36,893 nucleotides of DNA, taken from IMG/VR virus record IMGVR_UViG_3300032216_000505, positions 1-36,893 of that record; one strand, 5' to 3'. The notes below the pieces were generated by a model. It had not been told where the DNA came from and searched no databases. It worked only from the letters and a program-made list of their open reading frames with translations. A program made the translations under genes and the position numbers. This DNA comes from a virus (Duplodnaviria > Caudoviricetes). The number at the start of each line of letters is the position of its first letter. Position 1 is the stretch's first letter. Below are positions 8,469-25,144 of this stretch, one piece after another.

Positions 8469-8480
8469 AACTGCTAGGAG
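8469..8480 (+). repeat. Conserved RBS leader AACTGCTAGGAG, copy 1 of 6
   Basis: Exact copies at 8469, 8923, 9436, 10163 and 11088 (+) and 17329..17340 (-), each 6-8 nt before a start codon. Confidence 0.9.
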
Positions 8481-8488: not shown

Positions 8489-8872
8489 ATGGGAAATAGA
8501 GCCGTTATCGGGTTTGAGGGTAAAAAAACTGGTATTTACTTGCATTGGAATGGTGGAGAGGAGAGCGTAAAAGCATTCCTAGATTGTGCCAAGTCTCTAG
8601 GGGTTCGGGATCCAGTCTCGGATAGTTATGGAGTCGCTAGACTTACGCAAATTATCGGAAATTTTTTCGGGGGTTCTCTGTCTCTTGGCATAGGGGATAT
8701 TGATAGCCTAGACTGCGACAATGGAAACAACGGGACTTATATAGTCGGGAAGGGTTGGGAGATCGTGGAAAGACGCTACCAGCACGAAAAGGGAGAATTT
8801 AACGGGGATGAGTATAGGAAGTGTTTAGCGTATTGTATTGAGCGCAATAAGCCCTATTTTGCCCGTGACTAA
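8489..8872 (+). CDS. Phage early hypothetical protein
   Basis: MGNRAVI...IYLHWNGG motif; strong SD; first gene of the + strand operon. Confidence 0.8.
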   Translation: MGNRAVIGFEGKKTGIYLHWNGGEESVKAFLDCAKSLGVRDPVSDSYGVARLTQIIGNFFGGSLSLGIGDIDSLDCDNGNNGTYIVGKGWEIVERRYQHEKGEFNGDEYRKCLAYCIERNKPYFARD

Positions 8873-8921
8873 CATACTGACGAGTCTATAAGGACGAAAC
8901 AGACGAGAGTCTGTCTATGTT
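8871..8921 (+). ncRNA. Type I hammerhead ribozyme 1 (predicted cleavage after C8915)
   Basis: Stem I AACAUA/UAUGUU; core CUGACGA; stem II GUCU-auaa-GGAC; GAAA; stem III CAGAC-gaga-GUCUG; GUC site. Confidence 0.93.
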
Positions 8922-8942
8922 TAACTGCTAGGAGTTTATAAA

Positions 8943-9383: not shown

Positions 9384-9435
9384 GATTAACTGATGAGGGC
9401 TAATTGCCCGAAACAGTCGAGAGACTGTCTTAATC
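9384..9435 (+). ncRNA. Type I hammerhead ribozyme 2 (predicted cleavage after C9429)
   Basis: Stem I GAUUAA/UUAAUC; CUGAUGA; stem II GGGC-uaauu-GCCC; GAAA; stem III CAGUC-gaga-GACUG; GUC site. Confidence 0.95.
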
Positions 9436-9455
9436 AACTGCTAGGAGATTGAAAA

Positions 9456-10110: not shown

Positions 10111-10162
10111 AGGCAAACTGATGAGACTTTAAGAGTCGAAACCCTGAGAAGGGTCTTTGTCT
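10111..10162 (+). ncRNA. Type I hammerhead ribozyme 3 (predicted cleavage after C10155)
   Basis: Stem I AGGCAAA/UUUGUCU; CUGAUGA; stem II GACU-uuaag-AGUC; GAAA; stem III CCCU-gaga-AGGG; GUC site. Confidence 0.93.
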
Positions 10163-10182
10163 AACTGCTAGGAGTATTAAAA

Positions 10183-10576: not shown

Positions 10577-10577
10577 G

Positions 10578-11036: not shown

Positions 11037-11086
11037 AAAATTCTTCAAGACCATTCAAGGAGTGGTCTTGGGGGGCAATTTTGCCC
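11032..11086 (+). promoter_or_regulatory. Long intergenic RNA hairpin, candidate RNase III processing site
   Basis: 16-bp stem 11041..11056/11060..11075 with several G-U pairs, extendable by GGUAAAA/UUUUGCC; immediately before leader copy 5. Confidence 0.55.
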
Positions 11087-11105
11087 TAACTGCTAGGAGT
11101 AAATC

Positions 11106-11291
11106 ATGGTAAGTAGAAAAGAAATGATTGATGAATTAACAGGATCTATGTTTGATGCGATGGAGTGTGATGCAGATTATCGCTGGAATTTGTGTAAAAC
11201 AGGATTTAAAGGTTTTAATAATTACACAGATGAAGAGCTAAAACGGGAATATCTTGATTACATAAGCGATGACATTGGGGAGGATGTATGA
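11106..11291 (+). CDS. Acidic hypothetical protein
   Basis: 61 aa; follows the leader at 11088. Confidence 0.75.
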   Translation: MVSRKEMIDELTGSMFDAMECDADYRWNLCKTGFKGFNNYTDEELKREYLDYISDDIGEDV

Positions 11292-11518: not shown

Positions 11519-11813
11519 GTATTCAATGAGAACCGAGGTTTGTGGAAACCCTGATTATGGTCAAGATCCTAAAAAGCCCCCGTATGGGGTTAGAGTGATT
11601 ACTCTAAAGTCTCATAGCTATGAGGATTTAATTGCTCAAGTCGGAGATTGGCAACATGAGAATGACATAGGAGGAGGCAATTGGATGAATCCATCCGTCT
11701 CTATTGATGGGGAAGTCATAGGTTATATGTCTTACAACGGGAAGGTGTGGGCTGATAGGTCTTGGACACCTAACACAAGGCAAATTTACTTTAAGGAGAC
11801 ACAAGATGCCTAA
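11511..11813 (+). CDS. Hypothetical protein
   Basis: Start at ATG 11511 after GGAGGT; GNPDYGQDP, IGGGNW and SYNGKVW motifs. Confidence 0.75.
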   Translation: MPKYSMRTEVCGNPDYGQDPKKPPYGVRVITLKSHSYEDLIAQVGDWQHENDIGGGNWMNPSVSIDGEVIGYMSYNGKVWADRSWTPNTRQIYFKETQDA

Positions 11814-11988
11814 ATACTTTGTAGTTTTTACTGAAGAATCAACGAAAGACCACGGCTATTATGTGGATGCCAAGAATAAAGAAGATGCTTACCACTTAGC
11901 ACAAGGCAAGTATCATGCTATGCAAGAGGCTGATAGCATCAATACCAGCTATTCCAAAACAATAGATCATGAGGTGCAAAATGCCTAA
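11806..11988 (+). CDS. Hypothetical protein
   Basis: 60 aa; AAGGAG SD; VDAKNKEDA motif. Confidence 0.7.
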   Translation: MPKYFVVFTEESTKDHGYYVDAKNKEDAYHLAQGKYHAMQEADSINTSYSKTIDHEVQNA

Positions 11989-12274
11989 AGTAATGATTGA
12001 AGTAGATATTCCAAAAGGTCGTTCTATTGCCGAGGCAGAGGGCGCAGTCAAAAGGGCTTTTGATCCTGATTGGATGGCAAGCTGGTGGCATATATCTGAT
12101 GTCCAAGATTGCTTTAATTCCGAGGAGCCGAATGAATGGAATATCACCGATTCTGAGGCAAGAGAAGTGCTGAGAAGGATAGATAAATATCACAATTCTG
12201 AAGTAGGTATCAATTGGGATGTAATCGAATCTCATTGTGAGACAGTTGTTAATGAGCGCAAGGAGGTAGCATGA
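11981..12274 (+). CDS. Hypothetical protein
   Basis: Start at ATG 11981 after GAGGT; W-I-DV...EAREVL...GINWDVI motifs. Confidence 0.75.
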   Translation: MPKVMIEVDIPKGRSIAEAEGAVKRAFDPDWMASWWHISDVQDCFNSEEPNEWNITDSEAREVLRRIDKYHNSEVGINWDVIESHCETVVNERKEVA

Positions 12275-12441
12275 ATAAATACATTGAAGAATTATTAACA
12301 GAAATGATATTTGATTTTAATGACTTAGCGATAGGCAATACTTTTAAGGATGTTGGTTACGATACCAAAAAAGAGTTTTTTGAAGAGATGAGCAGAAAAG
12401 CAAATGAACTTTACTCTAGATTATCTAAGGAGGTAGCATGA
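12271..12441 (+). CDS. 56-aa protein (not in ORF track)
   Basis: Junction AAGGAGGTAGCATGAA is repeated at both ends of the gene (12260 and 12427). Confidence 0.75.
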   Translation: MNKYIEELLTEMIFDFNDLAIGNTFKDVGYDTKKEFFEEMSRKANELYSRLSKEVA

Positions 12442-12584
12442 AGATCACAGGAATATCTGTAATTTTTACTTATGAAAATGGTGAAATTCAAGATGTCAGT
12501 AGTTATGTTCCCATGGGAATTTATAGCGATTTGGAGAATTTTGCCGATTGTTGGCAAGAAGATGAGGAGAGTGAAAATGAATAG
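12438..12584 (+). CDS. 48-aa acidic protein (not in ORF track)
   Basis: MKITGISVIFTYENG...; AAGGAGG SD; ATGA overlap. Confidence 0.7.
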   Translation: MKITGISVIFTYENGEIQDVSSYVPMGIYSDLENFADCWQEDEESENE

Positions 12585-13023
12585 CGATCTATTAGATGAG
12601 TATTGTGTGATGGAATTTGGTCATAAAGATTGGGCTATGTCTTGGGATGAGGCTGGCAATTTGATTGTAATGTTTCATAAAGAGGCAAGTGCCGAGTATT
12701 TGGCAGATCAACATGAGGAAGATTGCCCAACAATGGACGGATTTGGATGCCATTGTGGGGAGGTTAAAGTTAAGAACCATGTGCGTATGCGTAAAGATTT
12801 GGCAGAAGAGGGTATTACTATTCCCGCTGGCAAAAGTTACAAGGACTATGACGATTTGCAAGAGGTAGAGTATTTATCTGCACAAGATTTAGAAGGAGCA
12901 GTAGAGTTTGATACGGGAGAAGATCCTGATAGCCATGCTTTTTGCCCCGTTAAACTTGCTGATGGTCGAGTGTTTTACTTGATTGGAGTTGATCTTGATT
13001 GGTTTTCAGAGGAGGAAGTATGA
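12577..13023 (+). CDS. Acidic hypothetical protein
   Basis: Start reassigned to ATG 12577 (MNSDLLDEY) after GAGGAG; contains H--DCP...C-C. Confidence 0.7.
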   Translation: MNSDLLDEYCVMEFGHKDWAMSWDEAGNLIVMFHKEASAEYLADQHEEDCPTMDGFGCHCGEVKVKNHVRMRKDLAEEGITIPAGKSYKDYDDLQEVEYLSAQDLEGAVEFDTGEDPDSHAFCPVKLADGRVFYLIGVDLDWFSEEEV

Positions 13024-13178
13024 ATCAAGCAGATAAAGACGCACAGAAGTGGATGGAGGCTAACTCCAAGTGGCAATACAAAAGGATGATAGAGGCTAAG
13101 GAATCAGGTAAGCCATATTATATAGACGAAACGGGCTATGTCATCATTGAGGAAAAGAATGAACCTAAGACTAGCTAA
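13020..13178 (+). CDS. 52-aa protein (not in ORF track)
   Basis: MNQADKDAQKWMEANSKWQ...; GAGGAG SD; ATGA overlap. Confidence 0.65.
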   Translation: MNQADKDAQKWMEANSKWQYKRMIEAKESGKPYYIDETGYVIIEEKNEPKTS

Positions 13179-13548
13179 AGGCAAAGTACCCATCCTCAGA
13201 AGGTGGGAGCATGGTGAGAATGATTACTTCTTGATTGACTTCCCATCACGGGAAGTCTTTTTTAGCCTATATACCTATCAGACCAGCGAGCAAAATAAGG
13301 CTAAATATTGGGAAGTATTAAACCACCGATCACGAGGCAAAACCCGCATGGAATGTGCCAAGATGATTGGTGCTACCCCAGGTTGGGTTGCTAAGATTGA
13401 GGCTAAGTTTTGCCGACTCATGAGACAATGGTATTTCAAAGACTTGGAGACCAATCTGTTGAAACTTACATTGTCACATGAGGCGTTACTATCTTTTTTA
13501 GAGACTGAGATGCCCGAAAATTCCCTACACGCTGATGATAGTCATTGA
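13159..13548 (+). CDS. Possible sigma70 region 4-like HTH protein
   Basis: VL--R--GKT--ECAKMIG-T--WV--IE pattern; last gene of the early operon. Confidence 0.5.
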   Translation: MNLRLAKGKVPILRRWEHGENDYFLIDFPSREVFFSLYTYQTSEQNKAKYWEVLNHRSRGKTRMECAKMIGATPGWVAKIEAKFCRLMRQWYFKDLETNLLKLTLSHEALLSFLETEMPENSLHADDSH

Positions 13549-14293
13549 AGTCCTCCCCGACTGTGGGGGAGATCCAATACGGCTTGCCTGTTTCCATAGC
13601 GGTGGCTTGCCCCACACCACTATTGTCGTTATCGGAAATGATGATTCCGTTGGGGAAATACCCAGCTATGAGCTTCATGTTGCTTGCGCTAAAGCACACA
13701 TGGATACAATACTTGATATTGCAAGATTTCATCACCTCTCTTATGGAAAGTCCAGTCGCATACCCCTCGCAGAACATCGGGATTCCCTTTGCGTTCATGC
13801 AGAAAGTTGCCCCCTTGGATTGCTGACCATAGAGGAACTTCTTTTCCCCTTGTTCATTGATTATTTGGACACCAACCAATTTGGTGGCAATTCTCATGGG
13901 TATAACTAATAGCTTTTCCCCATCCTTTTCCCATACATTACCCTGTTCATCAGGAAATCCTTTGGAGGCAAGATAAGGATGTGTAGCAAGTGTAGTTTGA
14001 TTCAAGATCCAGCCTGCTTTTTTGGCAGCTTTTTCCTTGGCATCATCTGCAGTCTTGTTAGATTGTGCGATTCTTTCCCTCACCACCGAGCTTGAGGCAT
14101 TTTCACCCTCTGCAAACCAAGTGGCTGGCTTTTCCATTGTTGCCCAGTTCTGAACCCAACCTACATTACCTAAAAACTTGTATCGCCCATTACTACTACG
14201 AGGATGGTCAAGCGTAGGTGTAGGAATCCATCTGTCGTGTTGCACTGAGTTAATAATGAGGCCATGCCCTCTTGCAAAATCTTCAAACTGCAT
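13466..14293 (-). CDS. Toprim-domain DNA primase-like protein
   Basis: HPYL--KG, CEGYATGLS, ISDNDNSGVG and DFND Toprim motifs; start at MQFEDF. Confidence 0.85.
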   Translation of the reverse strand: MQFEDFARGHGLIINSVQHDRWIPTPTLDHPRSSNGRYKFLGNVGWVQNWATMEKPATWFAEGENASSSVVRERIAQSNKTADDAKEKAAKKAGWILNQTTLATHPYLASKGFPDEQGNVWEKDGEKLLVIPMRIATKLVGVQIINEQGEKKFLYGQQSKGATFCMNAKGIPMFCEGYATGLSIREVMKSCNIKYCIHVCFSASNMKLIAGYFPNGIIISDNDNSGVGQATAMETGKPYWISPTVGEDFNDYHQRVGNFRASQSLKKIVTPHVTM

Positions 14294-14498
14294 TCTTATT
14301 CTTTCTCTTTTGAATTTCGTCAAGCAAATACCATACGGATTTCTCTAAGTCTTCAATGTCTCTACCCTTCTCATCTGCCCGCCAAATATATTTAATAGCA
14401 TTCCCCAGGTTAAACCCCATGTGCCGTGTAATCGTAATGCAATCTATGCCAGATGGATGTGAGGTGTAATGTTTAGGATTGTTGACTGGATCACTCAT
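14283..14498 (-). CDS. DUF3310 family protein
   Basis: DPVNNPKHY...GFNLGNAIKYIWRA--KG---EDLEK--WYL signature. Confidence 0.85.
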   Translation of the reverse strand: MSDPVNNPKHYTSHPSGIDCITITRHMGFNLGNAIKYIWRADEKGRDIEDLEKSVWYLLDEIQKRKNKNAV

Positions 14499-14637
14499 CT
14501 TCCATAACCTTTTTGCAATCATTCATAATTAAGATTGCTAAAGTCTTGGCTTCTGCGTGACAGTTAGGATCTTCCTTGACATTTTTACAGCCTTCCATAA
14601 TTTTTTTAATTAAAACTTCCATTTCATTTGCTTTCAT
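14491..14637 (-). CDS. Small hypothetical protein
   Basis: 48 aa from MKANEME; GGAG SD; overlaps neighbours. Confidence 0.55.
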   Translation of the reverse strand: MKANEMEVLIKKIMEGCKNVKEDPNCHAEAKTLAILIMNDCKKVMEDE

Positions 14638-14809
14638 TTTTCTCTCCCAAAAAGTCTTCCATTTTATAACCACGTTTTTTTAACTCCTTTGCAAAGTTAC
14701 GCAAAGCCCTAGCCTCAAGGTAAGAGACCATGCCTCGTTCCAATCCCATCGCATCACCAATCTCTTGTTGTGTCATCGGAAGATCTTTGGTGTCTTTCTT
14801 AGTTCTCAT
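14624..14809 (-). CDS. Sigma70 region 4-like HTH protein
   Basis: PMTQQEIGDAMGLERGMVSYLEARALR matches the region 4 HTH pattern. Confidence 0.75.
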   Translation of the reverse strand: MRTKKDTKDLPMTQQEIGDAMGLERGMVSYLEARALRNFAKELKKRGYKMEDFLGEKNESK

Positions 14810-16287
14810 GCGGCTCTCTTTTGTTTTGCTTTAGCCCAAGCAATCTGACGATGCTTAACCCAGTTAATTGTAGTTAAAGATGGTATACGGGTTGTTTGAT
14901 ATAAGTTATCAGGCCAAGTTCCAAATTTATTTTTAAATTCATGTTTAGCCCAATTAGCGTTATATTTTCTTTCGTTGGCAATATGTAGTAGTTCAGAATA
15001 AAAGAATTGTTTTTCTTTACGCATATTGGCTTGGGTTTCGCCTAACTCTATTAGTTGACCAGCAACAACGGCTAACTGAATCTTTTGTTTGACGTATCCA
15101 CACGATACACACGTATCACTGTGCTTAGGCCAAAGTGCAGAGCAAGAAGGGCATTTGCTTTCTTTCTTTTCTTTTTCGGTTGGTTCTTTTTTGGTCTTTT
15201 CCTGTTGGTCGTTTAAATCTTTAACTCCCTCTTCATATATTTCATCCCAGTCATCACGAAATCGCAAGTAATTACCTGAATGGTCTAACCAAAGGGCAAA
15301 GTTTTTACCTGGATAAGGGCGCATTACCCTGCCAAGCTGCTGGATATGAGAGCTTAATGATTTAGAAAATGGGCGAGCAGAAACCCCAATACAAACATCA
15401 GGAACATCAAAACCCCTGGTAAGGATGTCAGTAGCAATAAGGCCGTGGATATCTGTATCGGGCTTTGCAAAGTCCTCAATAGCTTGCTTTTTAAACTCAT
15501 CGTTATCTTTATATGAGATTGATACAAAGTTATAACCTTTGTTGGCAAACTGTTGAACCAAATCTTGTCCATGTGCAACTCCAGCACAAAATACAATCGT
15601 TTTTTTGGGCATACCAAATACTTCATGGGTTTTAGTAATCCACTCTTGGACGATATCGCCTGTAATCTTCATGCCCCTTTCGGTGACATCATCAGGAGAC
15701 CATTCGCCAGCAAGTTTTTTGGCTCCTGTCATATCAATCTCTTTTGATATAAAGACTTTTAATGGGGTAAGCCATTTATCTTTTACCAGTTTGCCTGTGG
15801 TAGAAGCGCAAATTACATTGGAATAAATACCGCCTAGACCTTTGGTAAAGGGAGTAGCAGTAAGCCCAATGACTTTTAATGTAGGATTTTCTTGAATGAT
15901 TGCAGTAATCTTTGATCGGGTAATATGGCACTCATCCACAATCAATAGATCAATATCAGGAAACTGATTACGTCTTTCTAATGTTTGTGCAGAACAAACC
16001 TGGATACGCCGAGTGCTATCGTTCTTCCAGTGGTTTGACTGCATTACACCATGTCCAATATTGTATTTTTCTAAACGCATACTGGTTTGATCGACCAATA
16101 CAATACGATCTAGAATCATGGCTGACTTCTTATAGTTATCTGAGGTAGCTTTCATTAACGCTATGGCTACTTCAGTCTTGCCAAATCCTGTTGGTGCATA
16201 CAACAACTGCGCCCTATGTCCCGCTTTAAATCCGTCTCTTAATGCATCAATTACCCATGACTGATGCTCTCTTAATTCTAATTCCAT
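14806..16287 (-). CDS. Superfamily 2 helicase with C-terminal Zn-finger (RadD/YejH-like)
   Basis: LREHQ, APTGFGKT, DECH, TATP, GFDVP, QQLGRVMR, CPSC...CVSCG. Confidence 0.92.
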   Translation of the reverse strand: MELELREHQSWVIDALRDGFKAGHRAQLLYAPTGFGKTEVAIALMKATSDNYKKSAMILDRIVLVDQTSMRLEKYNIGHGVMQSNHWKNDSTRRIQVCSAQTLERRNQFPDIDLLIVDECHITRSKITAIIQENPTLKVIGLTATPFTKGLGGIYSNVICASTTGKLVKDKWLTPLKVFISKEIDMTGAKKLAGEWSPDDVTERGMKITGDIVQEWITKTHEVFGMPKKTIVFCAGVAHGQDLVQQFANKGYNFVSISYKDNDEFKKQAIEDFAKPDTDIHGLIATDILTRGFDVPDVCIGVSARPFSKSLSSHIQQLGRVMRPYPGKNFALWLDHSGNYLRFRDDWDEIYEEGVKDLNDQQEKTKKEPTEKEKKESKCPSCSALWPKHSDTCVSCGYVKQKIQLAVVAGQLIELGETQANMRKEKQFFYSELLHIANERKYNANWAKHEFKNKFGTWPDNLYQTTRIPSLTTINWVKHRQIAWAKAKQKRAA

Positions 16288-16324
16288 CTTATTCCTTAAC
16301 TTCCGCAAACCCTGCGGTGTGGGT

Positions 16325-16513
16325 TTATGCTGCCAATTTATCCTGTTCTAGTAATGCATTTTGCAAAGACTCATGCAACATAGCGGTCATGCCATTTAAT
16401 ACAAAAGCTAGCTCTACTGCCTTTTCAAAATCTCTACGATTGGCAGTTTCATATACACGTTCTGCTAATTTGCCAATTCTAATGGTGTAAAGTGAATAGT
16501 CTTCAAGGTTCAT
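16325..16513 (-). CDS. Hypothetical protein
   Basis: 62 aa; ATGA overlap with the upstream gene. Confidence 0.6.
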   Translation of the reverse strand: MNLEDYSLYTIRIGKLAERVYETANRRDFEKAVELAFVLNGMTAMLHESLQNALLEQDKLAA

Positions 16514-17322
16514 TTTTTTCTTTTCATTGCATTGATGGTTTTAATAAGTTCGGCATTACGATTTTGAAACATATCACGGCTTTCTCGAAGCGCTTTATTT
16601 TCAATTTCCAAAATACGGTTTCGTTCTCTAAGATTCGCAACAGTCTCCTCGATGTCAATCTTTTCGATCTCGGAGGCATTCCATTGCCCCACCGCAATCT
16701 TATCCCTGAAGACTGTGTTTTCTTCTGCCAATAAGTTGATCGTGTCTGAGAGTTCTGCAATCTTCTGGTCTTTGTCTTCCTCTGCTGGATTAACATTTTT
16801 TTTCTCCTCTGGCTTTTTTGGTCTTCCCATATTTTCAGTAGAAATGGTAGCCTCTCTGCCATTTTTATCTGTGTAAGTTACTTCAGATGGTTTGATATCC
16901 AATTCTTTTCTGATGCGGCCTACTGTCATGTTAGATACGCCAATGTGAGCGGCAATCTTATTGTTTGATAACTTAGACCAAATAGGGTTATCAATAATGA
17001 TTTGCATCATGTAACGCTTATCTTCTGCAGTTTTATCTAGGCCATGATTGTTAGATCCTAAAGAAAACCATAACGCATCGGTAACTGTACCCTCTTTAAC
17101 ATCGCAATCCAATGAAGCTTTGCCAGCTTGTTTGGAGGCAAAGTAACGATGAAATCCTGATGAAAGCCAATAGTCTGAGCCATCATAAAAAACGGTAATG
17201 GGCGGAAACTCAATGCCCTCTCTAATCATTTCTGAATATTCATTTACTCGTTCTTGGTTGAGTTCTTTGCGGCTTTGTGTTTTTCCGTCGATGCGAATGT
17301 TTAGTAAATTAATACTTTTCAA
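16510..17322 (-). CDS. ParB/Srx-like N-terminal domain + HTH + coiled-coil protein
   Basis: FPPITVF...SGFHRYFA (ParB-like), SNNKIAAHIGVSNMTVGRIR (HTH); TTG start after leader copy 6. Confidence 0.75.
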   Translation of the reverse strand: MKSINLLNIRIDGKTQSRKELNQERVNEYSEMIREGIEFPPITVFYDGSDYWLSSGFHRYFASKQAGKASLDCDVKEGTVTDALWFSLGSNNHGLDKTAEDKRYMMQIIIDNPIWSKLSNNKIAAHIGVSNMTVGRIRKELDIKPSEVTYTDKNGREATISTENMGRPKKPEEKKNVNPAEEDKDQKIAELSDTINLLAEENTVFRDKIAVGQWNASEIEKIDIEETVANLRERNRILEIENKALRESRDMFQNRNAELIKTINAMKRKK

Positions 17323-17348
17323 TTAAGTCTCCTAGCAGTTGGTCTTAC

Positions 17349-17357
17349 AGTATAACA
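17349..17357 (-). promoter_or_regulatory. Extended -10 element (TGtTATACT) upstream of leader copy 6
   Basis: Predicted start about 17343, a few nt before AACTGCTAGGAG at 17340..17329; no clear -35. Confidence 0.45.
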
Positions 17358-17359
17358 AA

Positions 17360-17515
17360 TTAGCCGAGCAAGTTCCAGCCAAATTTGATGATGTCAAACA
17401 AGAAGTGAGCGACGAGGCCGCCGAATACCAAGAAGCCGTATAACATCACTATAACAATGATAACAGCGGCAATTGCCATGCCAGCCCATTTGACGTATTT
17501 CAGTATTTCTTTCAT
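17360..17515 (-). CDS. 51-aa membrane protein (not in ORF track)
   Basis: MKEILKYVKWAGMAIAAVIIVIVMLYGFLVFGG...; SD AAGGGGGA. Confidence 0.7.
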   Translation of the reverse strand: MKEILKYVKWAGMAIAAVIIVIVMLYGFLVFGGLVAHFLFDIIKFGWNLLG

Positions 17516-17559
17516 TTCAAAATCCCCCTTTTACTAATAAGTAACTACTAAGAAGTAAC

Positions 17560-17808
17560 ATGATACCTTTTGGTGGACGCACTCCGCCCTAGAAGTGCGC
17601 CTTTAACTATGATACCTTTCGGAGCCACAGCACTCGCCAGTCGTTCGTAGAATCGGCACTAGCTTCGCCACCGATTTTGCGTTGTTACATCTACTTCCCC
17701 AGTAACGCTTGTATTTATATCGCTGGTGTTTCTCTGCCGTCCAATATAAACCGCATGGAGAACAAGAGACACACGAATTGAATCGTGTTTTACTCTCATT
17801 TTCCTAGC
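17560..17808 (-). ncRNA. Candidate ~250-nt structured RNA or leader upstream of the replication genes
   Basis: Five or more helices whose G-U pairs work only on the - strand, a CC-GAAA-GG tetraloop, its own promoter, and no convincing ORF. Confidence 0.6.
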
Positions 17809-17814
17809 AAATTC

Positions 17815-17843
17815 AGAATACACTAACTGAAAAATTTTTGCAA
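17815..17843 (-). promoter_or_regulatory. Sigma70-type promoter
   Basis: TTGCAA-17 bp-TATTCT. Confidence 0.65.
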
Positions 17844-17847
17844 GTAT

Positions 17848-17885
17848 AAAAAGAAAGAACCCCAGGTTTTTAGTCTGGGGTTCTT
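17848..17885 (-). terminator. Intrinsic terminator
   Basis: Perfect 11-bp stem AAGAACCCCAG/CTGGGGTTCTT followed by TCTTTTT on the - strand. Confidence 0.85.
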
Positions 17886-17969
17886 GGATCAAGGGGGTCG
17901 ATCCGTGGGCTTGCGTTGCACAAGTCTCTGCTAGGAGAATGAAAGTGCGTGTCAGGGGGGAACTGACAT
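17848..17969 (-). ncRNA. Candidate ~120-nt anti-Shine-Dalgarno sRNA
   Basis: Bounded by promoter and terminator; hairpin loops UUCCCCC and CCCCC; an unpaired CUCCUAGCAG complementary to the CUGCUAGGAG leaders. Confidence 0.75.
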
Positions 17970-17973
17970 ACTA

Positions 17974-18003
17974 AATATAGCACATGAATTCAAACTATGT
18001 CAA
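17974..18003 (-). promoter_or_regulatory. Strong sigma70-type promoter for the sRNA
   Basis: TTGACA-18 bp-TATATT with an extended TG. Confidence 0.8.
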
Positions 18004-18055
18004 TAGGTAGTGTTGTTTTAATACTCTATAGAGCTTTATGGGTGTCTATAGATGT

Positions 18056-18343
18056 CTATTTGATATCTAGACGTCCTGTTTCAAAAAGCCAGCCAATAGT
18101 TTTGCGGTGTGCTTCTTCCCATTTTTCAACACGTTCAGTTTTGGAAAGGTTTTTACCTTGGTCGATTTCCAAATGGCACGTATAGCATAGGGCTGCGACT
18201 CGGTAATCACTTGCTTTAAGCCCTCTACCTTTACCGTCCCGAAGCTGATTGGAATGTGCAGCCACAATTGTCCCGTCAGATCGACCACACTCTTGGCATG
18301 GGGATTCTCGTAATGCATCTAATAATTTCCTATTTCTATACAT
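18056..18343 (-). CDS. Zn-binding HNH-like nuclease (YbcO/DUF1364-like)
   Basis: PCQECG...VAAH...GKG-GLK--D...LCYTCH--ID. Confidence 0.75.
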   Translation of the reverse strand: MYRNRKLLDALRESPCQECGRSDGTIVAAHSNQLRDGKGRGLKASDYRVAALCYTCHLEIDQGKNLSKTERVEKWEEAHRKTIGWLFETGRLDIK

Positions 18344-18429
18344 TTTTTATGATAATATTCAGTAGTTTACACAAAAGTGAAACATTACTTACCTACTATT
18401 GCCGTACTTATCACAATCCTGGGGGGATT

Positions 18430-19404
18430 ATGCAACATACTAAGCAACAAGACGAAGAGTTTATCAGAGTTTGGAAAGAGTTAGGAAGTCCAACATTAGT
18501 CGCAAAGCATTTTGGCATGAATCCTCGTAGTGTTTTAAATAAACGGGCTGCCATACAAATTAAACATAACATAGAACTTCCCACGCATAATTCTCAAAGA
18601 GATCCCAAGAAAGAAAAGCCTAAAAAGGTTGAAATGGCTGCCCACAATGTCCGTAGAGGCATTGATATAGATAAAGTAAAGCGGGTTATAGTCTTTTCAG
18701 ATGCCCATTTTACTGACACACCCACCACAGCTTTTAAAGCACTCCTTAAATTCATTAAAAAATATAAGCCAGAAGTTATTATTTGTAACGGAGATGCTTT
18801 TGATGGACAGGTTTTGAGTCGTTTTCCATCCATTAATTATGACCAAAAGCCCACAGTTCTTGAAGAATTGAACGCTTGCCGTTGGCATTTGGATGAAATT
18901 GAAAAAATTAGGCCAGCAGGATGCCGTCTGATTTGGACGCTTGGAAATCATGATATGCGATACGAGTCCTGGCTGGTCAATAAAGTGCCAGAATACAGCG
19001 GTGTGGACGGCTTTAGCCTAAAGTACCACTTTCCTAACTGGGAGACCTGTTGGAGCTTCTGGATAGGTGAGGAGACCGTTGTAAAGCACCGGTTTAAAGG
19101 TGGCCGCACGGCGGGTTACAGCAATTTGCAGGCGGCGGGGAATACGAACATCATTACGGGGCATACCCATGTTCTCTGTACTAGCCCAATTAGTAATTAC
19201 CAAGGAACCTTTTGGGGGATCCAGACTGGCTGCTTGGCCGATCCTATGTCACCAACCTTTGAATATTGTGAGGATGGCCCTAAAGACTGGCGCTCTGGCT
19301 TTGTAATGCTATCTTTTGCCCAAGGCCGTATGCTTATGCCAGAAATGGTTATGGTTTGTGGAGAAGGCGAGGTAGAATTTAGGGGTGAGATCCTAGACGT
19401 ATGA
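18430..19404 (+). CDS. Calcineurin-like metallophosphoesterase with N-terminal HTH-like region
   Basis: SDAH, NGDAFD, GNHD and GHTH motifs; start moved to ATG 18430 after GGGGGG. Confidence 0.88.
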   Translation: MQHTKQQDEEFIRVWKELGSPTLVAKHFGMNPRSVLNKRAAIQIKHNIELPTHNSQRDPKKEKPKKVEMAAHNVRRGIDIDKVKRVIVFSDAHFTDTPTTAFKALLKFIKKYKPEVIICNGDAFDGQVLSRFPSINYDQKPTVLEELNACRWHLDEIEKIRPAGCRLIWTLGNHDMRYESWLVNKVPEYSGVDGFSLKYHFPNWETCWSFWIGEETVVKHRFKGGRTAGYSNLQAAGNTNIITGHTHVLCTSPISNYQGTFWGIQTGCLADPMSPTFEYCEDGPKDWRSGFVMLSFAQGRMLMPEMVMVCGEGEVEFRGEILDV

Positions 19405-19748
19405 AATTATCCCCTTCCATTCTGCGCAATTTATATAGCGCAATCTACTGTATGAAGCCGTTTGTGCGGTGGCCTATGCCGTTGCCAGAGCAGATTAAAT
19501 TCATAGTGGATTCTGACCCAGAGACAATGGGCACTTATTTGTATGATGACGGGGAGGATTATGAACATATTATTACTATTTCAGATAAAAAATGTGGGCA
19601 TTTGGCGACTGTGATTCGTGTCCTAATTCATGAATGCGTTCATATGAGCCGCTGGAAGACTCCTAAATGGTCTCACCACGATGCTGAATTTCGCAGGCGC
19701 ACTAAAGTCATTTCAGAAGAACTGGGATTTGACCCTCTCGAACTATAG
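19401..19748 (+). CDS. SprT-like zinc metallopeptidase
   Basis: LIHECVH (HExxH) then H---F; ATGA overlap with the phosphoesterase gene. Confidence 0.7.
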   Translation: MKLSPSILRNLYSAIYCMKPFVRWPMPLPEQIKFIVDSDPETMGTYLYDDGEDYEHIITISDKKCGHLATVIRVLIHECVHMSRWKTPKWSHHDAEFRRRTKVISEELGFDPLEL

Positions 19749-19838
19749 TGGCACAGAGAAATACAACATAAGTGTTGTGTTTGTTAAGTAGAATAGAGTA
19801 AACATAACTCTAGATTACCTAATTAAATATGTAACTCA

Positions 19839-19854
19839 CTGTACATATTCACAG
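19839..19854. promoter_or_regulatory. LexA (SOS) box
   Basis: CTGT-ACATATTC-ACAG, a perfect CTGT-N8-ACAG with AT-rich spacer. Confidence 0.55.
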
Positions 19855-19930
19855 TTGCGGTGCAGCAATCCCCAATTTAATACTTAAAAGTACCAATTTG
19901 GTATGCATATTGCTAACTATAGGTATAAAT

Positions 19931-19984
19931 TGAGCCGTATTTGCATAGAATACGGCTCATAAAAGGTTGCAAAAAGCAACCTTT
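19931..19984. terminator. Tandem hairpins at a convergent gene junction (probable terminators)
   Basis: TGAGCCGTATT/AATACGGCTCA and AAAGGTTGC/GCAACCTTT. Confidence 0.55.
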
Positions 19985-20005
19985 AGGCACTAATTAAAAC
20001 TTTAA

Positions 20006-20128
20006 TTACTTCTTGGTAAAGAATTCTTTAACACTAGAGTAAACGCAGTTGTACCAAAATTCATACGCTTGCTTTGTACGCTCGGTTAAATCTTCATATT
20101 TTTTAAACTGCTCTTCAAATGTAAACAT
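20006..20128 (-). CDS. 40-aa helical protein, possibly phasin-like (not in ORF track)
   Basis: MFTFEEQFKKYEDLTERTKQAYEFWYNCVYSSVKEFFTKK; AAGGAG SD; extended -10 TGtTACAAT followed by a TGC-rich box. Confidence 0.65.
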   Translation of the reverse strand: MFTFEEQFKKYEDLTERTKQAYEFWYNCVYSSVKEFFTKK

Positions 20129-20147
20129 AGGGATTCTCCTTATTTAT

Positions 20148-20163
20148 GTTGCGATGCAGCAAT
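20148..20163. promoter_or_regulatory. PhaR-like TGC-rich operator (second copy at 19854..19869)
   Basis: GTTGCG(A/G)TGCAGCAAT, 15/16 identical between the copies; this copy lies between the -10 and the SD. Confidence 0.45.
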
Positions 20164-20175
20164 TGTAACATATAT

Positions 20176-20322
20176 TTATTTGGTAGCAAGCAAGTAAGCC
20201 CCATAATTTGCAAAAGAATATCCAGCGTACATACAAGCAAGGCCTACTTCTCCTTTAAGCGCCTGTTCAACCGTAATCCAGGCATAAATTAAACCAGTAA
20301 TAATGATTAGATTAGCGCTCAT
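20176..20322 (-). CDS. 48-aa two-helix membrane protein (not in ORF track)
   Basis: MSANLIIITGLIYAWITVEQALKGEVGLACMYAGYSFANYGAYLLATK; GGAG SD. Confidence 0.7.
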   Translation of the reverse strand: MSANLIIITGLIYAWITVEQALKGEVGLACMYAGYSFANYGAYLLATK

Positions 20323-20338
20323 CTATATCTCCAAGCAT

Positions 20339-20530
20339 TTAGCATCTTCCGTCCATGTCAAGTTCATCGTCTTCTAAAAGTTTTTTATAAGCCTGTAAAT
20401 AAGTATCTCTTTCGTGTTCAACTTGCATAAGTTTATGACGCAGCCTATCAATCTCAGCCTGTTGTACATGAATCTGCTCACGAAGATAATTTTCTTCTTC
20501 TTCTCTATCAATAGTTGTAAATGTAGTCAT
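20339..20530 (-). CDS. Coiled-coil hypothetical protein
   Basis: 63 aa; MTTFTT-DR start; ATGA overlap. Confidence 0.65.
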   Translation of the reverse strand: MTTFTTIDREEEENYLREQIHVQQAEIDRLRHKLMQVEHERDTYLQAYKKLLEDDELDMDGRC

Positions 20531-20775
20531 TTCTCTTGAGCCTTTAACTGTTTATTAAACTTTTCAACTTCTTTCCACCAAGCATCTGAATACTTTGCTG
20601 GCTTTACTTCTTGTATTTCCATAGCTTTCTCAAACTTTTCTTTCCAATACTCAATCTCTTCTTGCTGTTTGCGTAGCATAGTGGCTGCTTCAGGCATAGC
20701 TAAATGGGCTACCCCATCTGCTTTATCTTGTTCGTGCAACTCATCTAATACATCAGCTAGTTCATTTGCGTTCAT
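20527..20775 (-). CDS. MNANELAD-family protein, paralog A
   Basis: Shares its N-terminus and ATMLRKQQEEIEYWKEKF with 21576..21776. Confidence 0.75.
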   Translation of the reverse strand: MNANELADVLDELHEQDKADGVAHLAMPEAATMLRKQQEEIEYWKEKFEKAMEIQEVKPAKYSDAWWKEVEKFNKQLKAQEK

Positions 20776-21233
20776 TTCTCTTGTGCCTTTCTTAGTATTG
20801 CTAAAACAATTTCATGGGCTTCTGCACCAGTTCGGCAGTTATAAATTTTTACAGTAAAATCTTTTATTTCCTCATCTGTTAGTGTCAATTCAGGCTTTTC
20901 TTGCCATATAGGTTTGAAATTAACCAATGGGTCATCTGTTAGTGTCTTTGCTGGATGGGTGTAGAGTGGTGTTGGATTTGGATAAATGTCAGGATTAGGC
21001 TTCTCAAAAGAAACATAAGTGCTAATGTCAAAAGCACCTTCAAACATCCACGCTACTGGTTCATTGTTCATTTCTTTTGTATCCTCAGTTCTTTCTGTGT
21101 TATCAGTTATAAACTTTTCAAACGCCTCTATTTTGGCTTGTTGCTGGCGTAGCATGGTGGCTATTTCTTCCCTAGATACTAGCTTGTACCAACTATCCAC
21201 TTCTAATAAATCAGCTAGTTCATTTGCGTTCAT
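20772..21233 (-). CDS. MNANELAD-family protein, paralog B, with EPVAW...PLYTHP...LTDEEI module
   Basis: Shared N-terminus; internal duplicated TLTD segment. Confidence 0.75.
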   Translation of the reverse strand: MNANELADLLEVDSWYKLVSREEIATMLRQQQAKIEAFEKFITDNTERTEDTKEMNNEPVAWMFEGAFDISTYVSFEKPNPDIYPNPTPLYTHPAKTLTDDPLVNFKPIWQEKPELTLTDEEIKDFTVKIYNCRTGAEAHEIVLAILRKAQEK

Positions 21234-21475
21234 TTCTCTTCTACCTTTGCTCTCAGTACTTTGTTCTGCCTAAGCAAGTCCTCGATTATTTTTAAGTGCT
21301 CGGTATGTCGATCTTCCATCACTTTGACTACTCGCTCGAAATCATACTGCCAAGTCCCCATTTGGTTTAGTAATTTTTTAGAGTGATACCAAACATAGTC
21401 GGCAGTAATGCCTTCGACAATATGTTCTTCTCTAATCTCAAATTGTTTCAACAGCTCATCATTATTCTCAATCAT
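21230..21475 (-). CDS. Hypothetical protein
   Basis: 81 aa; GAGG SD; ATGA overlaps at both ends. Confidence 0.7.
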   Translation of the reverse strand: MIENNDELLKQFEIREEHIVEGITADYVWYHSKKLLNQMGTWQYDFERVVKVMEDRHTEHLKIIEDLLRQNKVLRAKVEEK

Positions 21476-21579
21476 CTAAACACCTCATATAAAAGTACGC
21501 CCAAAATAACAGCGGCAATTACAGCCCCAGCAATTGAAGCAACCATTGCTATTTTTGTAAAAAATAATAGTTCAATCAT
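21472..21579 (-). CDS. 35-aa membrane peptide (not in ORF track)
   Basis: MIELLFFTKIAMVASIAGAVIAAVILGVLLYEVFR; SD GGGGGAAG; ATGA overlaps. Confidence 0.65.
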   Translation of the reverse strand: MIELLFFTKIAMVASIAGAVIAAVILGVLLYEVFR

Positions 21580-21776
21580 TTTGTACTTCCCCCATAAACT
21601 TGTGATTCCAAATATTTAACATGTTCAGTTAAAACCATAGCCTTATTAAACTTTTCTTTCCAATACTCAATTTCTTCTTGCTGTTTGCGTAGCATGGTGG
21701 CTATTTCTACGGAGTGTTCATAAACCCTTCCGCTATCAAACAAAACCATTAAATCGGCTAGTTCATTTGCGTTCAT
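21576..21776 (-). CDS. MNANELAD-family protein, paralog C
   Basis: Shares DNA-level repeats with paralogs A and B. Confidence 0.75.
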   Translation of the reverse strand: MNANELADLMVLFDSGRVYEHSVEIATMLRKQQEEIEYWKEKFNKAMVLTEHVKYLESQVYGGSTK

Positions 21777-22051
21777 TTTGATGTTTTCCTGATGTCATCT
21801 TTGACATGCTTTTTCTTTTTTGCGATGGGTTTTTTAATTGCTGGTTTTCTTGCTTTAACATCCCCAGCAATAGTTCTATTAGCAATTTGTTCGGAAGTGG
21901 CATATTCATCAATGGCTTCTTTAAGCATACTGACAAGGCCCCATTGAACGAGTGTTTCAAGTCCTTCTTTATCAAATCTGACGACAGCATCAGCCGAACC
22001 ATCTTTATTCTCCTTGGTAATTTTTAATGAAATTTGCATATCATTCTCCAA
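21773..22051 (-). CDS. Hypothetical protein with basic C-terminal tail
   Basis: KENKDGSA motif; likely start at MQISL after GGAG. Confidence 0.65.
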   Translation of the reverse strand: MENDMQISLKITKENKDGSADAVVRFDKEGLETLVQWGLVSMLKEAIDEYATSEQIANRTIAGDVKARKPAIKKPIAKKKKHVKDDIRKTSK

Positions 22052-22253
22052 AATGTAATATTGGCTTATCTAAAGCTTCTAGTGACCACATCAGGTATTG
22101 CCTAATTTCATCTTTATCCTGACCTCCCATAGTGGATATGCAGTGACCCAAAGGTTTGCCAATTTGGTCGTAATACACTTCCCGAATTTCTATATAAACT
22201 TCATCAGGGTATTCTGGGTCTGTCATTTCAACTAATCTAAGATTCCAAGTCAT
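22041..22253 (-). CDS. Phage hypothetical protein
   Basis: MTWNLR...IREVYYD--G-P...ALDKPIL; AAGGA SD. Confidence 0.75.
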   Translation of the reverse strand: MTWNLRLVEMTDPEYPDEVYIEIREVYYDQIGKPLGHCISTMGGQDKDEIRQYLMWSLEALDKPILHFGE

Positions 22254-22459
22254 TGCAGTTTCCTTATTGTCATTAAGTCAAGTTCTAATTGTTTAACACG
22301 GCTTTCTAAACGAATCTTTGCATCATAAAACTCTTTACATTTGTTGTCCATGTACTGCAACTCTTTGCCTACTTCTTCAATTAATAAGCCAAGCCTAACA
22401 CCCATTTCCTCGTCTTTGGTATAAACTTCCTCTGCTATTTCAATTAGCTCTTGTATCAT
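22250..22459 (-). CDS. Coiled-coil hypothetical protein
   Basis: 69 aa; operon-coupled. Confidence 0.65.
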   Translation of the reverse strand: MIQELIEIAEEVYTKDEEMGVRLGLLIEEVGKELQYMDNKCKEFYDAKIRLESRVKQLELDLMTIRKLQ

Positions 22460-22637
22460 TTTTTGGTCTTCCCCTGCGCTTGATTGGTGGCAAACCTACT
22501 ACTGGTCCTGAGTCCCTAGCCTCAAGTATTGCATCTGCCATTTCCCATACTTCTTTCATGTCAAATGCGCTAGCTCTGCTTATTAATCCGTTGACTATAA
22601 ACATAGCAAAACAATCTCTTAGATCTTGGTCATTCAT
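22440..22637 (-). CDS. Phage hypothetical protein with AT-hook-like tail
   Basis: LRDCFA...MADAILEAR motif followed by KRRGRPK. Confidence 0.7.
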   Translation of the reverse strand: MNDQDLRDCFAMFIVNGLISRASAFDMKEVWEMADAILEARDSGPVVGLPPIKRRGRPKNDTRAN

Positions 22638-22912
22638 TTTTTTAACCCCTCGATGCGCTCAGACAATAGTTCGCCAACATCACGGCCTTTGACTGATACA
22701 TAAGTAGCTTCTTCGCAATCAAATACAATCTTGGCTGCATCCCGAAGACCTTGGTTATACCCGCTAGTATATTCATCACCACCATCTAACATCATAGCAA
22801 TTGCATCACGAATAACTTCAGATGCTTTTCTTTGTCTGGCATATTCCCTTAACCTGTCGTGATACTCTTGTGGCAAATAAAGAGAGTATGGCACTAATTT
22901 TCTTGCAACCAT
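22634..22912 (-). CDS. Possible ribbon-helix-helix DNA-binding protein
   Basis: YSLYLP-E-HDRL---A----SEVIRDAI pattern. Confidence 0.55.
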   Translation of the reverse strand: MVARKLVPYSLYLPQEYHDRLREYARQRKASEVIRDAIAMMLDGGDEYTSGYNQGLRDAAKIVFDCEEATYVSVKGRDVGELLSERIEGLKK

Positions 22913-23316
22913 TTTTGGTATTCCATTTGTAATTTTGATAATAAAATTTGGCCTTCACGATTAGTTTTGAGATCTGCCCTGGACTCTACGCCAAGATAAC
23001 TTCTTACCCATTCTGTGGCATCTTCCGCATCTTCATCAAAGATTTGCTCTTGTGAATATAAGTACTTCCAGAACTTGGGATCTTTACAAAGCATTCCAGC
23101 AGTACGAATAGCCTTGTTTCCTTCAAACTCATCTTGGCGATCCATTGGTTGTTCTTCACCGTTAATTCTAACCATGACAACTTGGTAACGAGCCCCAACA
23201 AAATCTCGAAGTAAGGCCTCAGGAGCATCGTCTGGATGCAGAGATAAGGTCAGGACATAGCCTGTCTTATCCTGCTTTAACGCTACTTTGACGCCCTCAA
23301 ACTGTAGGGTTTCCAA
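22894..23316 (-). CDS. Phage hypothetical protein
   Basis: 140 aa; AGMLC-DP-FW and GVESRADL motifs; GGAG SD. Confidence 0.75.
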   Translation of the reverse strand: METLQFEGVKVALKQDKTGYVLTLSLHPDDAPEALLRDFVGARYQVVMVRINGEEQPMDRQDEFEGNKAIRTAGMLCKDPKFWKYLYSQEQIFDEDAEDATEWVRSYLGVESRADLKTNREGQILLSKLQMEYQKWLQEN

Positions 23317-23319
23317 TGC

Positions 23320-23577
23320 TTACTCCCAAGGATCAGACTTAACTGGCTTTTCAAATGGCTCAGATACTGATAAAGATAGAAACTTCTTACCAGCAGAAGA
23401 TTCTTTTTTCCATGCGGCAACAGAAATCTTGCAAGTAGGGCCTTTAGATTTATCCATCATCTGAATAAGAAATGTCTTGTCTAAATGAAGATCGCCACGC
23501 ATATCGGGATGGTTATCTGCCTTTTTCGTTTCATTAGCGAATAGTGCGCCTGTGTTTGGTTTTGCTTCAAATGCCAT
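23320..23577 (-). CDS. Putative ssDNA-binding protein (DUF736-like)
   Basis: GALF-N--K----PD-RG...AAW------GKKFLSL, C-terminal DPWE; adjacent to ERF. Confidence 0.65.
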   Translation of the reverse strand: MAFEAKPNTGALFANETKKADNHPDMRGDLHLDKTFLIQMMDKSKGPTCKISVAAWKKESSAGKKFLSLSVSEPFEKPVKSDPWE

Positions 23578-23579
23578 GA

Positions 23580-24272
23580 TTACTCCTTGTTAAATTGATT
23601 TTTTACTTCGGTAAATTTCGCCATCATTTCTTTAAAGAAAATAGCGTCTTCTGCTTTGACAGTATCAAATAGAACTTTGTTCTTTTTAAATATTGCCATC
23701 ACATCTTCTTCGTTAACACATAAGTCAAGCAACATATGAGATGAAGTCTTAACTAATGATAACCATTCTTTGGTATCGCCCTCAGGTTTTATTGGAGCGG
23801 TAATCTGCCACTCACCTTTTAGACCAGTAATTTTTGGTTCTATCTTAGGCGCTGGAATATTAGGAATATTTGGCATTGGCTTTACTGGTTCAGACGAGCC
23901 CATAGTTGCATCTAAAGCATCATGCTCAACAATTTCAAAAGCATTAGTCCAAAGATACCTACGCAGATAAGTTTGCACAGCACCAAGATTTTGTACGTCA
24001 TGGCACCCTTTGAGAGCCGCTGAAGACATTGGGGACGTGAAGGTAACAAAGCTATTCTCCTTTTCTGTATCATAAATGGTAAGATAAGCATCCTGTGCAT
24101 TAAAAGATACAACTCCACATAAGCCAACCTTGGCACAAATGTTTTGTATCTGTGGTAAAAAATCGCCCAGTTCAAAATATTCATACCCAGCAAACTTGTT
24201 CTTACCAGACTTATTTAGCTTGGTATTTTGCAACAGAATTCTAGCTTCCTGTAGCTTTTTGTAAACGCTCAT
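23580..24272 (-). CDS. ERF-family single-strand annealing protein
   Basis: KSGKNKFAGYEYFELGDFLP and QNLGAVQTYLRRY...D-LDA. Confidence 0.85.
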   Translation of the reverse strand: MSVYKKLQEARILLQNTKLNKSGKNKFAGYEYFELGDFLPQIQNICAKVGLCGVVSFNAQDAYLTIYDTEKENSFVTFTSPMSSAALKGCHDVQNLGAVQTYLRRYLWTNAFEIVEHDALDATMGSSEPVKPMPNIPNIPAPKIEPKITGLKGEWQITAPIKPEGDTKEWLSLVKTSSHMLLDLCVNEEDVMAIFKKNKVLFDTVKAEDAIFFKEMMAKFTEVKNQFNKE

Positions 24273-25144
24273 CCTTGTTCCTTCATATATTGTTGATACT
24301 GATTACACCAAGTTGATACTTGGCAAAAGTTTTCACATCTTGTACGCTCTCCTGGCCGTATTTCAATGTCATAGTTATCGCCTAACTCTGCGAGTGCTGA
24401 TAATGCTTTTTCTGCGGTATCATAAATTGAATGCGCTCGTTTTCCGCCAATCTTACGCACCGCCCAGACAGTCGGCTTTTCCCACATTTCTTCTGGGGTG
24501 CAGTCTGGAAGTCGGCCATCAGTTTCAAGGGCAAACTCACAAGCAGAATGCAAAGCAATCCTCTTAGAAATAAACGCATCTCTTTCCTCCATAGTCCATA
24601 AACGAATTGGAAGCTCTTTAACTGGTGCCTCAGGATAACCTTCCCTAGTCTTGGCATCTCTCCGATTCCAATCACGAATGATTCCTACAATCCCAAGGTC
24701 AGTAATCTTTGTGCCCTTAACCTTTTCAACTAACCATGCATAAATATTTAGTTGATTTTCCCAATCAATCTTTTCATTCATTACTGCCCAAACTGAAGTA
24801 GTTTTGTAGTCTTTAATGCTAATGCCATTATCGCTAGTGATCTGCAAGTCAATTGCGCCTGAGATATGCCAGCCATCCTTTTCAGAGTGAAGACGTTGCT
24901 CAACGATATGATTCTCGTCTTTACCATGCTCCAATACGTTATGGACGGCAGAACCAAAAATAGACCAAATCATGTCAGAAACATCTTGCTCCAACTGGTC
25001 ATCAAACTTCTTGGTTAAAGCCACAATTTTTGGACTACTTAATAACTGCGTAGCTGACAAATGTGCCTTACCTTTAGAGTATGTTGGGCGATCCAACACA
25101 TTCATAAAAGTTTGTGGAATGTTGTATTTATTCGTCAGTTTCAT
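24269..25144 (-). CDS. PD-(D/E)XK exonuclease partnering ERF
   Basis: SAT-L, GSAVH-VLE, SGAID, DYKT, QLNIY and C---C-V---C; start at MKLTNKY. Confidence 0.85.
   Translation of the reverse strand: MKLTNKYNIPQTFMNVLDRPTYSKGKAHLSATQLLSSPKIVALTKKFDDQLEQDVSDMIWSIFGSAVHNVLEHGKDENHIVEQRLHSEKDGWHISGAIDLQITSDNGISIKDYKTTSVWAVMNEKIDWENQLNIYAWLVEKVKGTKITDLGIVGIIRDWNRRDAKTREGYPEAPVKELPIRLWTMEERDAFISKRIALHSACEFALETDGRLPDCTPEEMWEKPTVWAVRKIGGKRAHSIYDTAEKALSALAELGDNYDIEIRPGERTRCENFCQVSTWCNQYQQYMKEQG

Follow-up and report, generated by a model that had tools for sequence, protein, structure and literature searches.

The closest described systems are three antisense RNAs of phages and mobile elements, and the comparisons made here draw on PMC2864571, PMC5737381, and the papers cited for each system. 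C4 of the phages P1 and P7 (Rfam RF01695) is a trans-acting phage antisense RNA, in which a constant element covering the ribosome-binding site is combined with a variable specificity element and the target lies next to the RNA gene. It is an RNase P-processed cloverleaf that regulates a single operon, encoding the icd-ant antirepressor, and small changes in it give rise to heteroimmunity (PMC5320573, PMC12197685, PMC8198154). The CI RNA of P4, an integrating satellite, lies upstream of a helicase/primase operon and pairs with a nearby leader on the same strand (PMC4825925); it is processed from the transcript that it regulates, with termination at seqA/seqC, and has targets on both sides within that one transcript. 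RNA-OUT of IS10 is cis-encoded, presents a YUNR recognition loop on a hairpin, and has a single target in the form of a 5′ tail (PMC4737173).

Two further observations concern repeated elements in phage genomes. Clustered type I hammerhead ribozymes in phages and prophages lie on either side of individual genes or small gene groups, and cleavage of long transcripts was proposed as their task; the sections of that report drawn on here describe neither a common leader nor an antisense partner, and the terms "antisense" and "Shine-Dalgarno" each occur 0 times in its main text (PMC3088659). The purpose of phage hammerheads was called undefined in a 2019 review (PMC6765202). Cluster K mycobacteriophages carry start-associated sequences, an asymmetric repeat containing a Shine-Dalgarno (SD) sequence, which precedes nonstructural genes and whose function is given as unknown (PMC3203893). 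No title or abstract opening in the mostly open-access literature searched described a phage sRNA whose leaders are tied to ribozymes; supplementary material of PMC5737381 outside that literature may bear on novelty.

The DNA analyzed here (the window) is a whole virus record of 36,893 bases, ~60% of a genome as judged from relatives of 57-67 kb, and encodes terminase, portal, ParB-like, helicase, and primase proteins, as well as an early block of small genes (8489-13826, + strand) with no Pfam match in the 11 that were scanned. Its sequence points to a 120-nt antisense RNA gene with a seed complementary to a tag at the ribosome-binding sites of six genes, which probably represses their translation by pairing (Table 1). 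As in C4, constant and variable pairing elements of this predicted sRNA co-vary with an adjacent target. However, the Rfam C4 model had no match in the window (E ≤ 1) or in 17760-18060 (E ≤ 10), and it matched 0/13 relatives, where the control likewise gave no match. In contrast to C4, the sRNA has its own predicted promoter and terminator, such that processing would be unnecessary, though possible; no conserved icd or ant ORF follows it among the matches listed; and it has six or more distant targets, with no CI-type repressor found in near-complete relatives. It differs from P4 CI in that the sRNA and its near target have separate predicted promoters, the near target is downstream only, and the replication unit is preceded by a promoter and a tag of its own, with no integrase found. 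Unlike RNA-OUT, it is trans-encoded and has repeated tags with 5′ ends predicted to be made by ribozymes. The cluster K sequences share with it one reversed copy, untied to a gene, in four genomes, but differ in sequence, in copy number (11-19), and in belonging to temperate phages, with neither ribozymes nor an sRNA proposed in the sections of that report drawn on here (PMC3203893). On sequence grounds, the locus thus appears to resemble C4 and CI in layout and RNA-OUT in its predicted mode of recognition while falling outside the C4 family, and what seems new is phage antisense control with repeated tags, often behind predicted ribozymes.

Table 1. Predicted features of the sRNA locus, its targets, and the adjoining genes in the window
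Feature	Position	Strand	Score or remark
Leader tag, ORF 8489	8471..8480	+	no hammerhead; two hairpins upstream (~8404-8457)
Type I hammerhead 1	8871..8921	+	predicted cut after 8915
Leader tag, 38-codon ORF at 8944	8925..8934	+	9 nt past cut 1
Type I hammerhead 2	9384..9435	+	predicted cut after 9429
Leader tag, ORF 9456	9438..9447	+	8 nt past cut 2
Type I hammerhead 3	10111..10162	+	predicted cut after 10155
Leader tag, ORF 10183	10165..10174	+	9 nt past cut 3
Long plus short hairpin before leader	11043..11086	+	z -4.1; possible nuclease processing site
Leader tag, ORF 11106	11090..11099	+	
Primase	14323..13466	-	downstream of helicase
Helicase	16308..14806	-	downstream of ParB-like gene
ParB-like gene	17322..16510	-	
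Leader tag over SD of ParB-like gene	17329..17338	-	
Predicted extended -10 promoter, ParB-like/helicase/primase unit	17349..17357	-	
Betaproteobacteria-1 RNA (RF02932) inside P2 RNA	17632..17751	-	97.6 bits, E 2.5e-17
P2 leader hairpin	17757..17804	-	z -4.95; competes with sRNA binding
Proximal target, predicted 5′ end of P2 RNA	17792..17810	-	
P2, predicted second promoter, TTGCAA-17-TATTCT	17815..17843	-	8/12 consensus
Predicted sRNA, ~120 nt	17848..17967	-	four hairpins, no credible ORF
Intrinsic terminator	17848..17885	-	11-bp stem, 9-nt loop, U-tail
Seed hairpin, loop CUAGCA (17934..17929, YUNR pattern)	17925..17938	-	short co-varying stem
Antisense arm	17928..17946	-	invariant seed with a variable extension specific to each phage
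5′ hairpin with C-rich loop	17951..17967	-	possible second anti-SD seed (weak)
P1, sigma-70 type sRNA promoter, TTGACA-18-TG-extended TATATT	17974..18003	-	11/12 consensus

A sequence-only reading of this locus had already proposed the P1 promoter, a hairpin unit of ~120 nt devoid of a credible ORF, and the 11-bp terminator; the promoter agrees with consensus as tabulated, and both the fold and the terminator stem were reproduced. P1 is one of the two best among 40 promoter sites in 7000-26500, a region whose overall number of loosely matching sites shows no enrichment (51.7 in shuffles), and a P1-type pattern precedes every homologue examined. The fold of the unit is more stable than expected (z -6.7 in one framing and -5.3 in another, with 0/200 shuffles equally stable), and the opposite strand folds more weakly (z -2.25). 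Among the 44 units aligned, the terminator has two-sided changes at 8/10 consensus pairs; the covariance model R1 retained the terminator stem only, owing to the low quality of the alignment over the variable region. The promoter-plus-terminator pattern found exactly one unit in 18/20 genomes or large fragments, and one of its two misses, G008, carries a divergent copy detected by a covariance model. Rfam searches with the sRNA returned weak unrelated matches only.

The same reading had placed the 10-nt complement of the leaders unpaired between hairpins. This needs revision, in that CUAGCA alone is predicted to be exposed, as a hairpin loop, while the anti-SD bases would sit inside a weak 4-bp stem. 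This arrangement is conserved: an NUAGCA loop with its closing pair occurs in 27/27 distinct seed hairpins, the loop starts with a pyrimidine in 26 of them, and stem pairs 2-5 are formed 78 times, compared to 52.3 ± 4.7 upon permutation (0/10,000). A family-wide test of the first-hairpin loop as a possible second seed gave a weak signal (mean Z 0.52, 61/10,000, 24/31 phages scored). In the window, this hairpin (17951-17967, - strand) has a loop whose sequence complements the G-rich SDs at ORFs 9617 (+) and 25513 (-).

The leader sequence CTGCTAGGAG occurs in the window in seven exact copies, six in sense leaders and one reversed within the sRNA (17937..17928), bearing out the proposed exact complementarity over the SD. 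From composition, 0.04 exact copies are expected; at ≤1 mismatch, the expectation is 1.58, with 0/100 shuffles reaching seven. When 60 start regions were ranked by pairing with the seed, the six leaders took ranks 1-6, although the seed overlaps the SD and some match is expected from any anti-SD sequence. The predicted duplex covers AGGAG in 6/6 leaders, and the tags are predicted to be only partially accessible. Among the matches listed, the tag motif is asymmetric and invariably precedes a start codon by 5-10 nt, in the coding-strand orientation.

The six leaders had been described as ribozyme-linked, which applies to those at 8925, 9438, and 10165; the leaders at 8471, 11090, and 17338..17329 instead follow a promoter or a double hairpin, as do hammerhead-free tags among the matches listed in relatives. 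The three hammerheads, read directly from the sequence as Rfam models gave them no score, each have a CUGANGA plus GAAA core, a GUC cut site, and a 6-7 bp stem I. Across 3.6 Mb of overlapping loci, 47 distinct hammerheads were collected with no use of the tag as a search criterion, and in 41 of them the tag lies 8-13 nt after the predicted cut, in line with the earlier proposal that ribozymes place the target near a 5′ end; the remaining six stand before plain G-rich SDs. A fixed-spacing scan of IMG/VR found 62 stretches with a hammerhead plus tag. The companion idea that the ribozyme exposes the target found no support, since the tag lies 2-3 nt outside stem I, suggesting that cleavage would supply a free end and would not unmask the tag. 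In the ParB-type leaders, the extended -10 box has the same position in at least 18 leaders of the class. The long hairpin with its alternative short hairpin, aligned in 26 copies, stands before hammerhead-free tags and is also present in a clade that lacks the seed, and the copy at 11043-11086 has no Rfam match. It resembles the RNase III sites of T7 early mRNA processing and is possibly such a site or some other processing element. The early regions of L049, L052, L067, and L075 contain hammerheads with long stem III insertions that carry a repeated motif.

Homologous loci came from searches of IMG/VR with ParB, with the helicase, and with sequence patterns, and co-variation of leader and seed, which the sequence-only reading had set out as a check, was found among them. 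In phages whose seed has A at the variable position, the facing leader base is T in 86/95 leaders (32 sequence sets). Five of the nine exceptions carry C, giving an A-C mismatch, and three or more of these five belong to genuine leaders. In three GC-rich phages with G in the seed (L321, L341, and L379; seed UAGCGG, leaders CGCTAGGAG), the facing base is C in 15/16 leaders; two of these phages are near-identical, so that the change rests on approximately two lineages, and two further G-seed loci have no leader in the DNA examined. GC content alone does not explain the change, because the G-seed phages do not form one clade in a quick tree and their GC-rich A-seed sister, L024, keeps T. No GCTAG target was found behind the terminators of the G-seed RNAs, suggesting that there the tags alone maintain the seed. 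The flanks of seed and tag co-vary weakly (11.1 vs 10.3 bp, 0/10,000; 26 seed groups, 102 leaders) in permutation tests that, like the others used here, ignore kinship; L040 is a clear case of flanks fitting their own phage. The promoter of the window's recombination operon has no tag, and the T form is present there in 11/12 other A-seed loci with the sRNA in view. Tags are present in L322 and L326, with no sRNA found in the DNA examined.

A clade of 12 members has lost the seed, and its seven genomes contain 0 CTGCTAGG leaders. Its first loop, UCCCUUUC, fits GA[AG]AGGG leaders, a motif that precedes an ATG ORF in 30/46 occurrences in this clade vs 11/58 in 12 A-seed genomes; this fit concerns one clade only and an SD-like motif, and the orthologous promoter does not show it cleanly. 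GAGAGA was rejected as a distal tag of the seed-less clade, with 0 occurrences before ATG ORFs. The clade of L033, L035, L043-L046, L048, and L287-L301 retains the P1-sRNA-P2 layout, carries a new seed directed at the P2 RNA, and has GA[AG]AGGG early leaders that match its own first loop.

Co-variation reveals pairing, not its sign, and the sRNA could pair with the tags without repressing, for instance by stabilizing cut 5′ ends, timing their release, or titrating an RNA-binding protein, of host or phage origin, that reads the tags. The early genes of lytic phages usually need high expression, and a constitutive promoter would yield the RNA from the first minutes, both of which would suit such a role. 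The duplex nevertheless lies over AGGAG in all six leaders, and the SD-covering antisense RNAs C4 and RNA-OUT are described as repressors (PMC5320573, PMC4737173), making nonrepressive pairing an improbable alternative to translational repression.

The earlier target list, comprising the six leaders with the ParB-helicase-primase unit, finds support in the sequences, but it omitted the strongest and phage-specific target, the predicted RNA from the P2 promoter. P2 lies directly behind the sRNA terminator and, among the matches listed, is present in 45/51 promoter-terminator candidates; at least two of the six candidates without it are false matches. The predicted start of the P2 RNA consists of the seed target together with an extension that matches the variable arm, and GCTAR is located 6-12 nt past the P2 -10 box in 37/45, these 5′ ends being predicted only. 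In the window, the proximal target pairs with the sRNA arm at 18/19 positions, including two G-U pairs, and is the best non-self target among the matches listed. Arm and P2 RNA co-vary strongly (-26.0 vs -17.0 ± 0.7 kcal/mol in 29 pairs, with 0/10,000 permutations as good). After removal of near-duplicates, which left 10/44, the cognate P2 partner was the best in 9/10, and concerted changes of the arm and its P2 partner extend to relatives whose seeds are quite different. Counts of G-U pairs indicate no RNA-strand preference (29 vs 30), whereas pairing energies favor the RNA strand in 23/29. Homologues thereby provide good sequence-level support for base pairing of the sRNA with both target classes. 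Computed binding of the sRNA is -22 kcal/mol to the nascent P2 RNA and falls to -9 to -11 kcal/mol after the P2 hairpin closes, which suggests that the outcome is decided while the P2 RNA is still nascent.

Among the matches listed, the stretch behind the P2 target lacks a conserved ORF and contains RF02932, which was found in relatives too, or other structured sequence. In L003 (9425-9700), L017, L033, and L062, the Betaproteobacteria-1 RNA is replaced by other conserved structured sequences with no Rfam match, and L003, L018, and L079 have a seed copy within the 3′ arm of their own P2 hairpin. Between the P2 RNA and parB, the window has an ORF for a 51-aa hydrophobic protein (17360-17515, - strand) with no family match, found, among the matches listed, in the window, L001, L002, and L007 alone. 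A type I toxin-antitoxin system based on this ORF was rejected, the ORF being observed just in the window's subclade and lacking a tag.

That the P2 match is the longest, strongest, and most strongly co-varying, together with the loss of binding energy upon hairpin closure, would also fit an sRNA that acts on the adjacent P2 RNA only, by attenuation or processing as in P4 CI, in which case the tag would enhance translation or bind a protein, and its resemblance to the P2 5′ end would simply reflect common ancestry. Against this, the G-seed phages without a P2 target still change seed and tags together, and loss of the seed is accompanied by loss of the tags; restriction to P2 is therefore quite improbable.

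A role of the tag as a protein-binding DNA operator, with the reversed copy as another operator and the P2 match as an inverted repeat maintained by recombination, is very unlikely. Operator function would be independent of orientation, and the G-U counts lack a strand bias, but the motif is asymmetric, on the coding strand, and 5-10 nt before the start among the matches listed; its spacing relative to predicted RNA cut sites is fixed; its single reversed copy occupies the loop of a co-varying RNA hairpin; the P2 duplexes contain bulges of varying size; and no CI-type or HTH_3 repressor scored above the cut-off. Barely credible is a chance origin of the reversed copy (6e-5 expected in the sRNA unit) or its use as a seventh, + strand leader, since the open frame of 9-11 codons after the copy at 17928 has no + strand promoter there and a weaker + strand fold, and most homologues among the matches listed lack a fitting start codon.

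For the favored antisense repression, the CUAGCA loop would first pair with UGCUAG close to a free 5′ end, whose source would be hammerhead cleavage, initiation at a promoter, or a nuclease site; opening of the short seed stem would then let the helix extend over the SD, as for RNA-OUT on RNA-IN. A requirement for the free 5′ end is suggested by this scheme. The variable arm would bind the nascent P2 RNA before its hairpin closes and so alter the fate of that RNA. Transcribed from a strong host-type promoter, the sRNA would build up with time and genome copy number, and we favor a role in which early and replication genes are expressed as a pulse and then shut off as the RNA accumulates. Because the seed is common to the family, the same RNA may silence tagged genes of incoming relatives as a by-product.

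Classical lysogeny is unsupported, since tyrosine integrase and HTH_3 domains over the cut-off were each found in 0/11 near-complete relatives, and the S24 repressor domain and serine recombinase each in 0/12. Partition by ParA was likewise rejected (0/12 near-complete relatives). The joint fast change of arm and P2 RNA, which recalls P1/P7 heteroimmunity, keeps a carrier-state reading alive by analogy. A doubtful, though conceivable, extension is a protein-free immunity switch, in which the sRNA would be the master repressor, 5′ tags made by ribozymes or nucleases its operators, and the noncoding P2 RNA, with the Betaproteobacteria-1 motif at its end, an antirepressor silenced solely by the variable arm of the same phage; if true, a phage devoid of integrase could be maintained under copy-number control in a carrier state, and heteroimmunity groups would be set by the rapidly changing arm.

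The proposed antisense control offers a testable purpose for clustered phage hammerheads, namely, making free 5′ ends for a loop-type antisense RNA, and suggests a meaning for the start-associated repeats with one reversed copy (PMC3203893). It would give the orphan Betaproteobacteria-1 RNA a partner and represent an RNA regulon with several targets in an uncultured phage family that is abundant and has no recognizable protein repressor, and natural seed/tag pairs could serve as orthogonal parts for synthetic biology.

The abundance of this phage family is reflected in 1,003 ParB-like homologues at E ≤ 1e-30. The closest cultured terminases (55-58%) belong to the Pelagibacter phages HTVC023P/027P, DSL-LC04, and 023Pt_psg01, which are HTVC023P-type podophages. 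The sRNA/tag module was found neither in the complete MinM2 record nor in the examined parts of DSL-LC04 (33/62 kb), HTVC023P (19/61 kb), and MW202545 (25/57 kb); a DNA-level search of cultured phage sequences gave no match. A pattern scan of genome contigs for prophage or host copies gave 58 matches, 0 with a terminator. Betaproteobacteria are hinted at as hosts solely by the name of the Rfam family Betaproteobacteria-1, and Polynucleobacter was dismissed as host, with no supporting evidence. Elsewhere in the window, an 1,877-aa protein of phrog_14770, function not known (26037-31670, - strand), adjoins the gene for a DNA ejection protein, and 20499-21791 (- strand) holds small genes in which starts and internal segments are duplicated. 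A 25-nt partly self-complementary element, possibly a protein operator, occurs in two copies (7408-7432 and 25600-25624), one of which adjoins the recombination-operon promoter.
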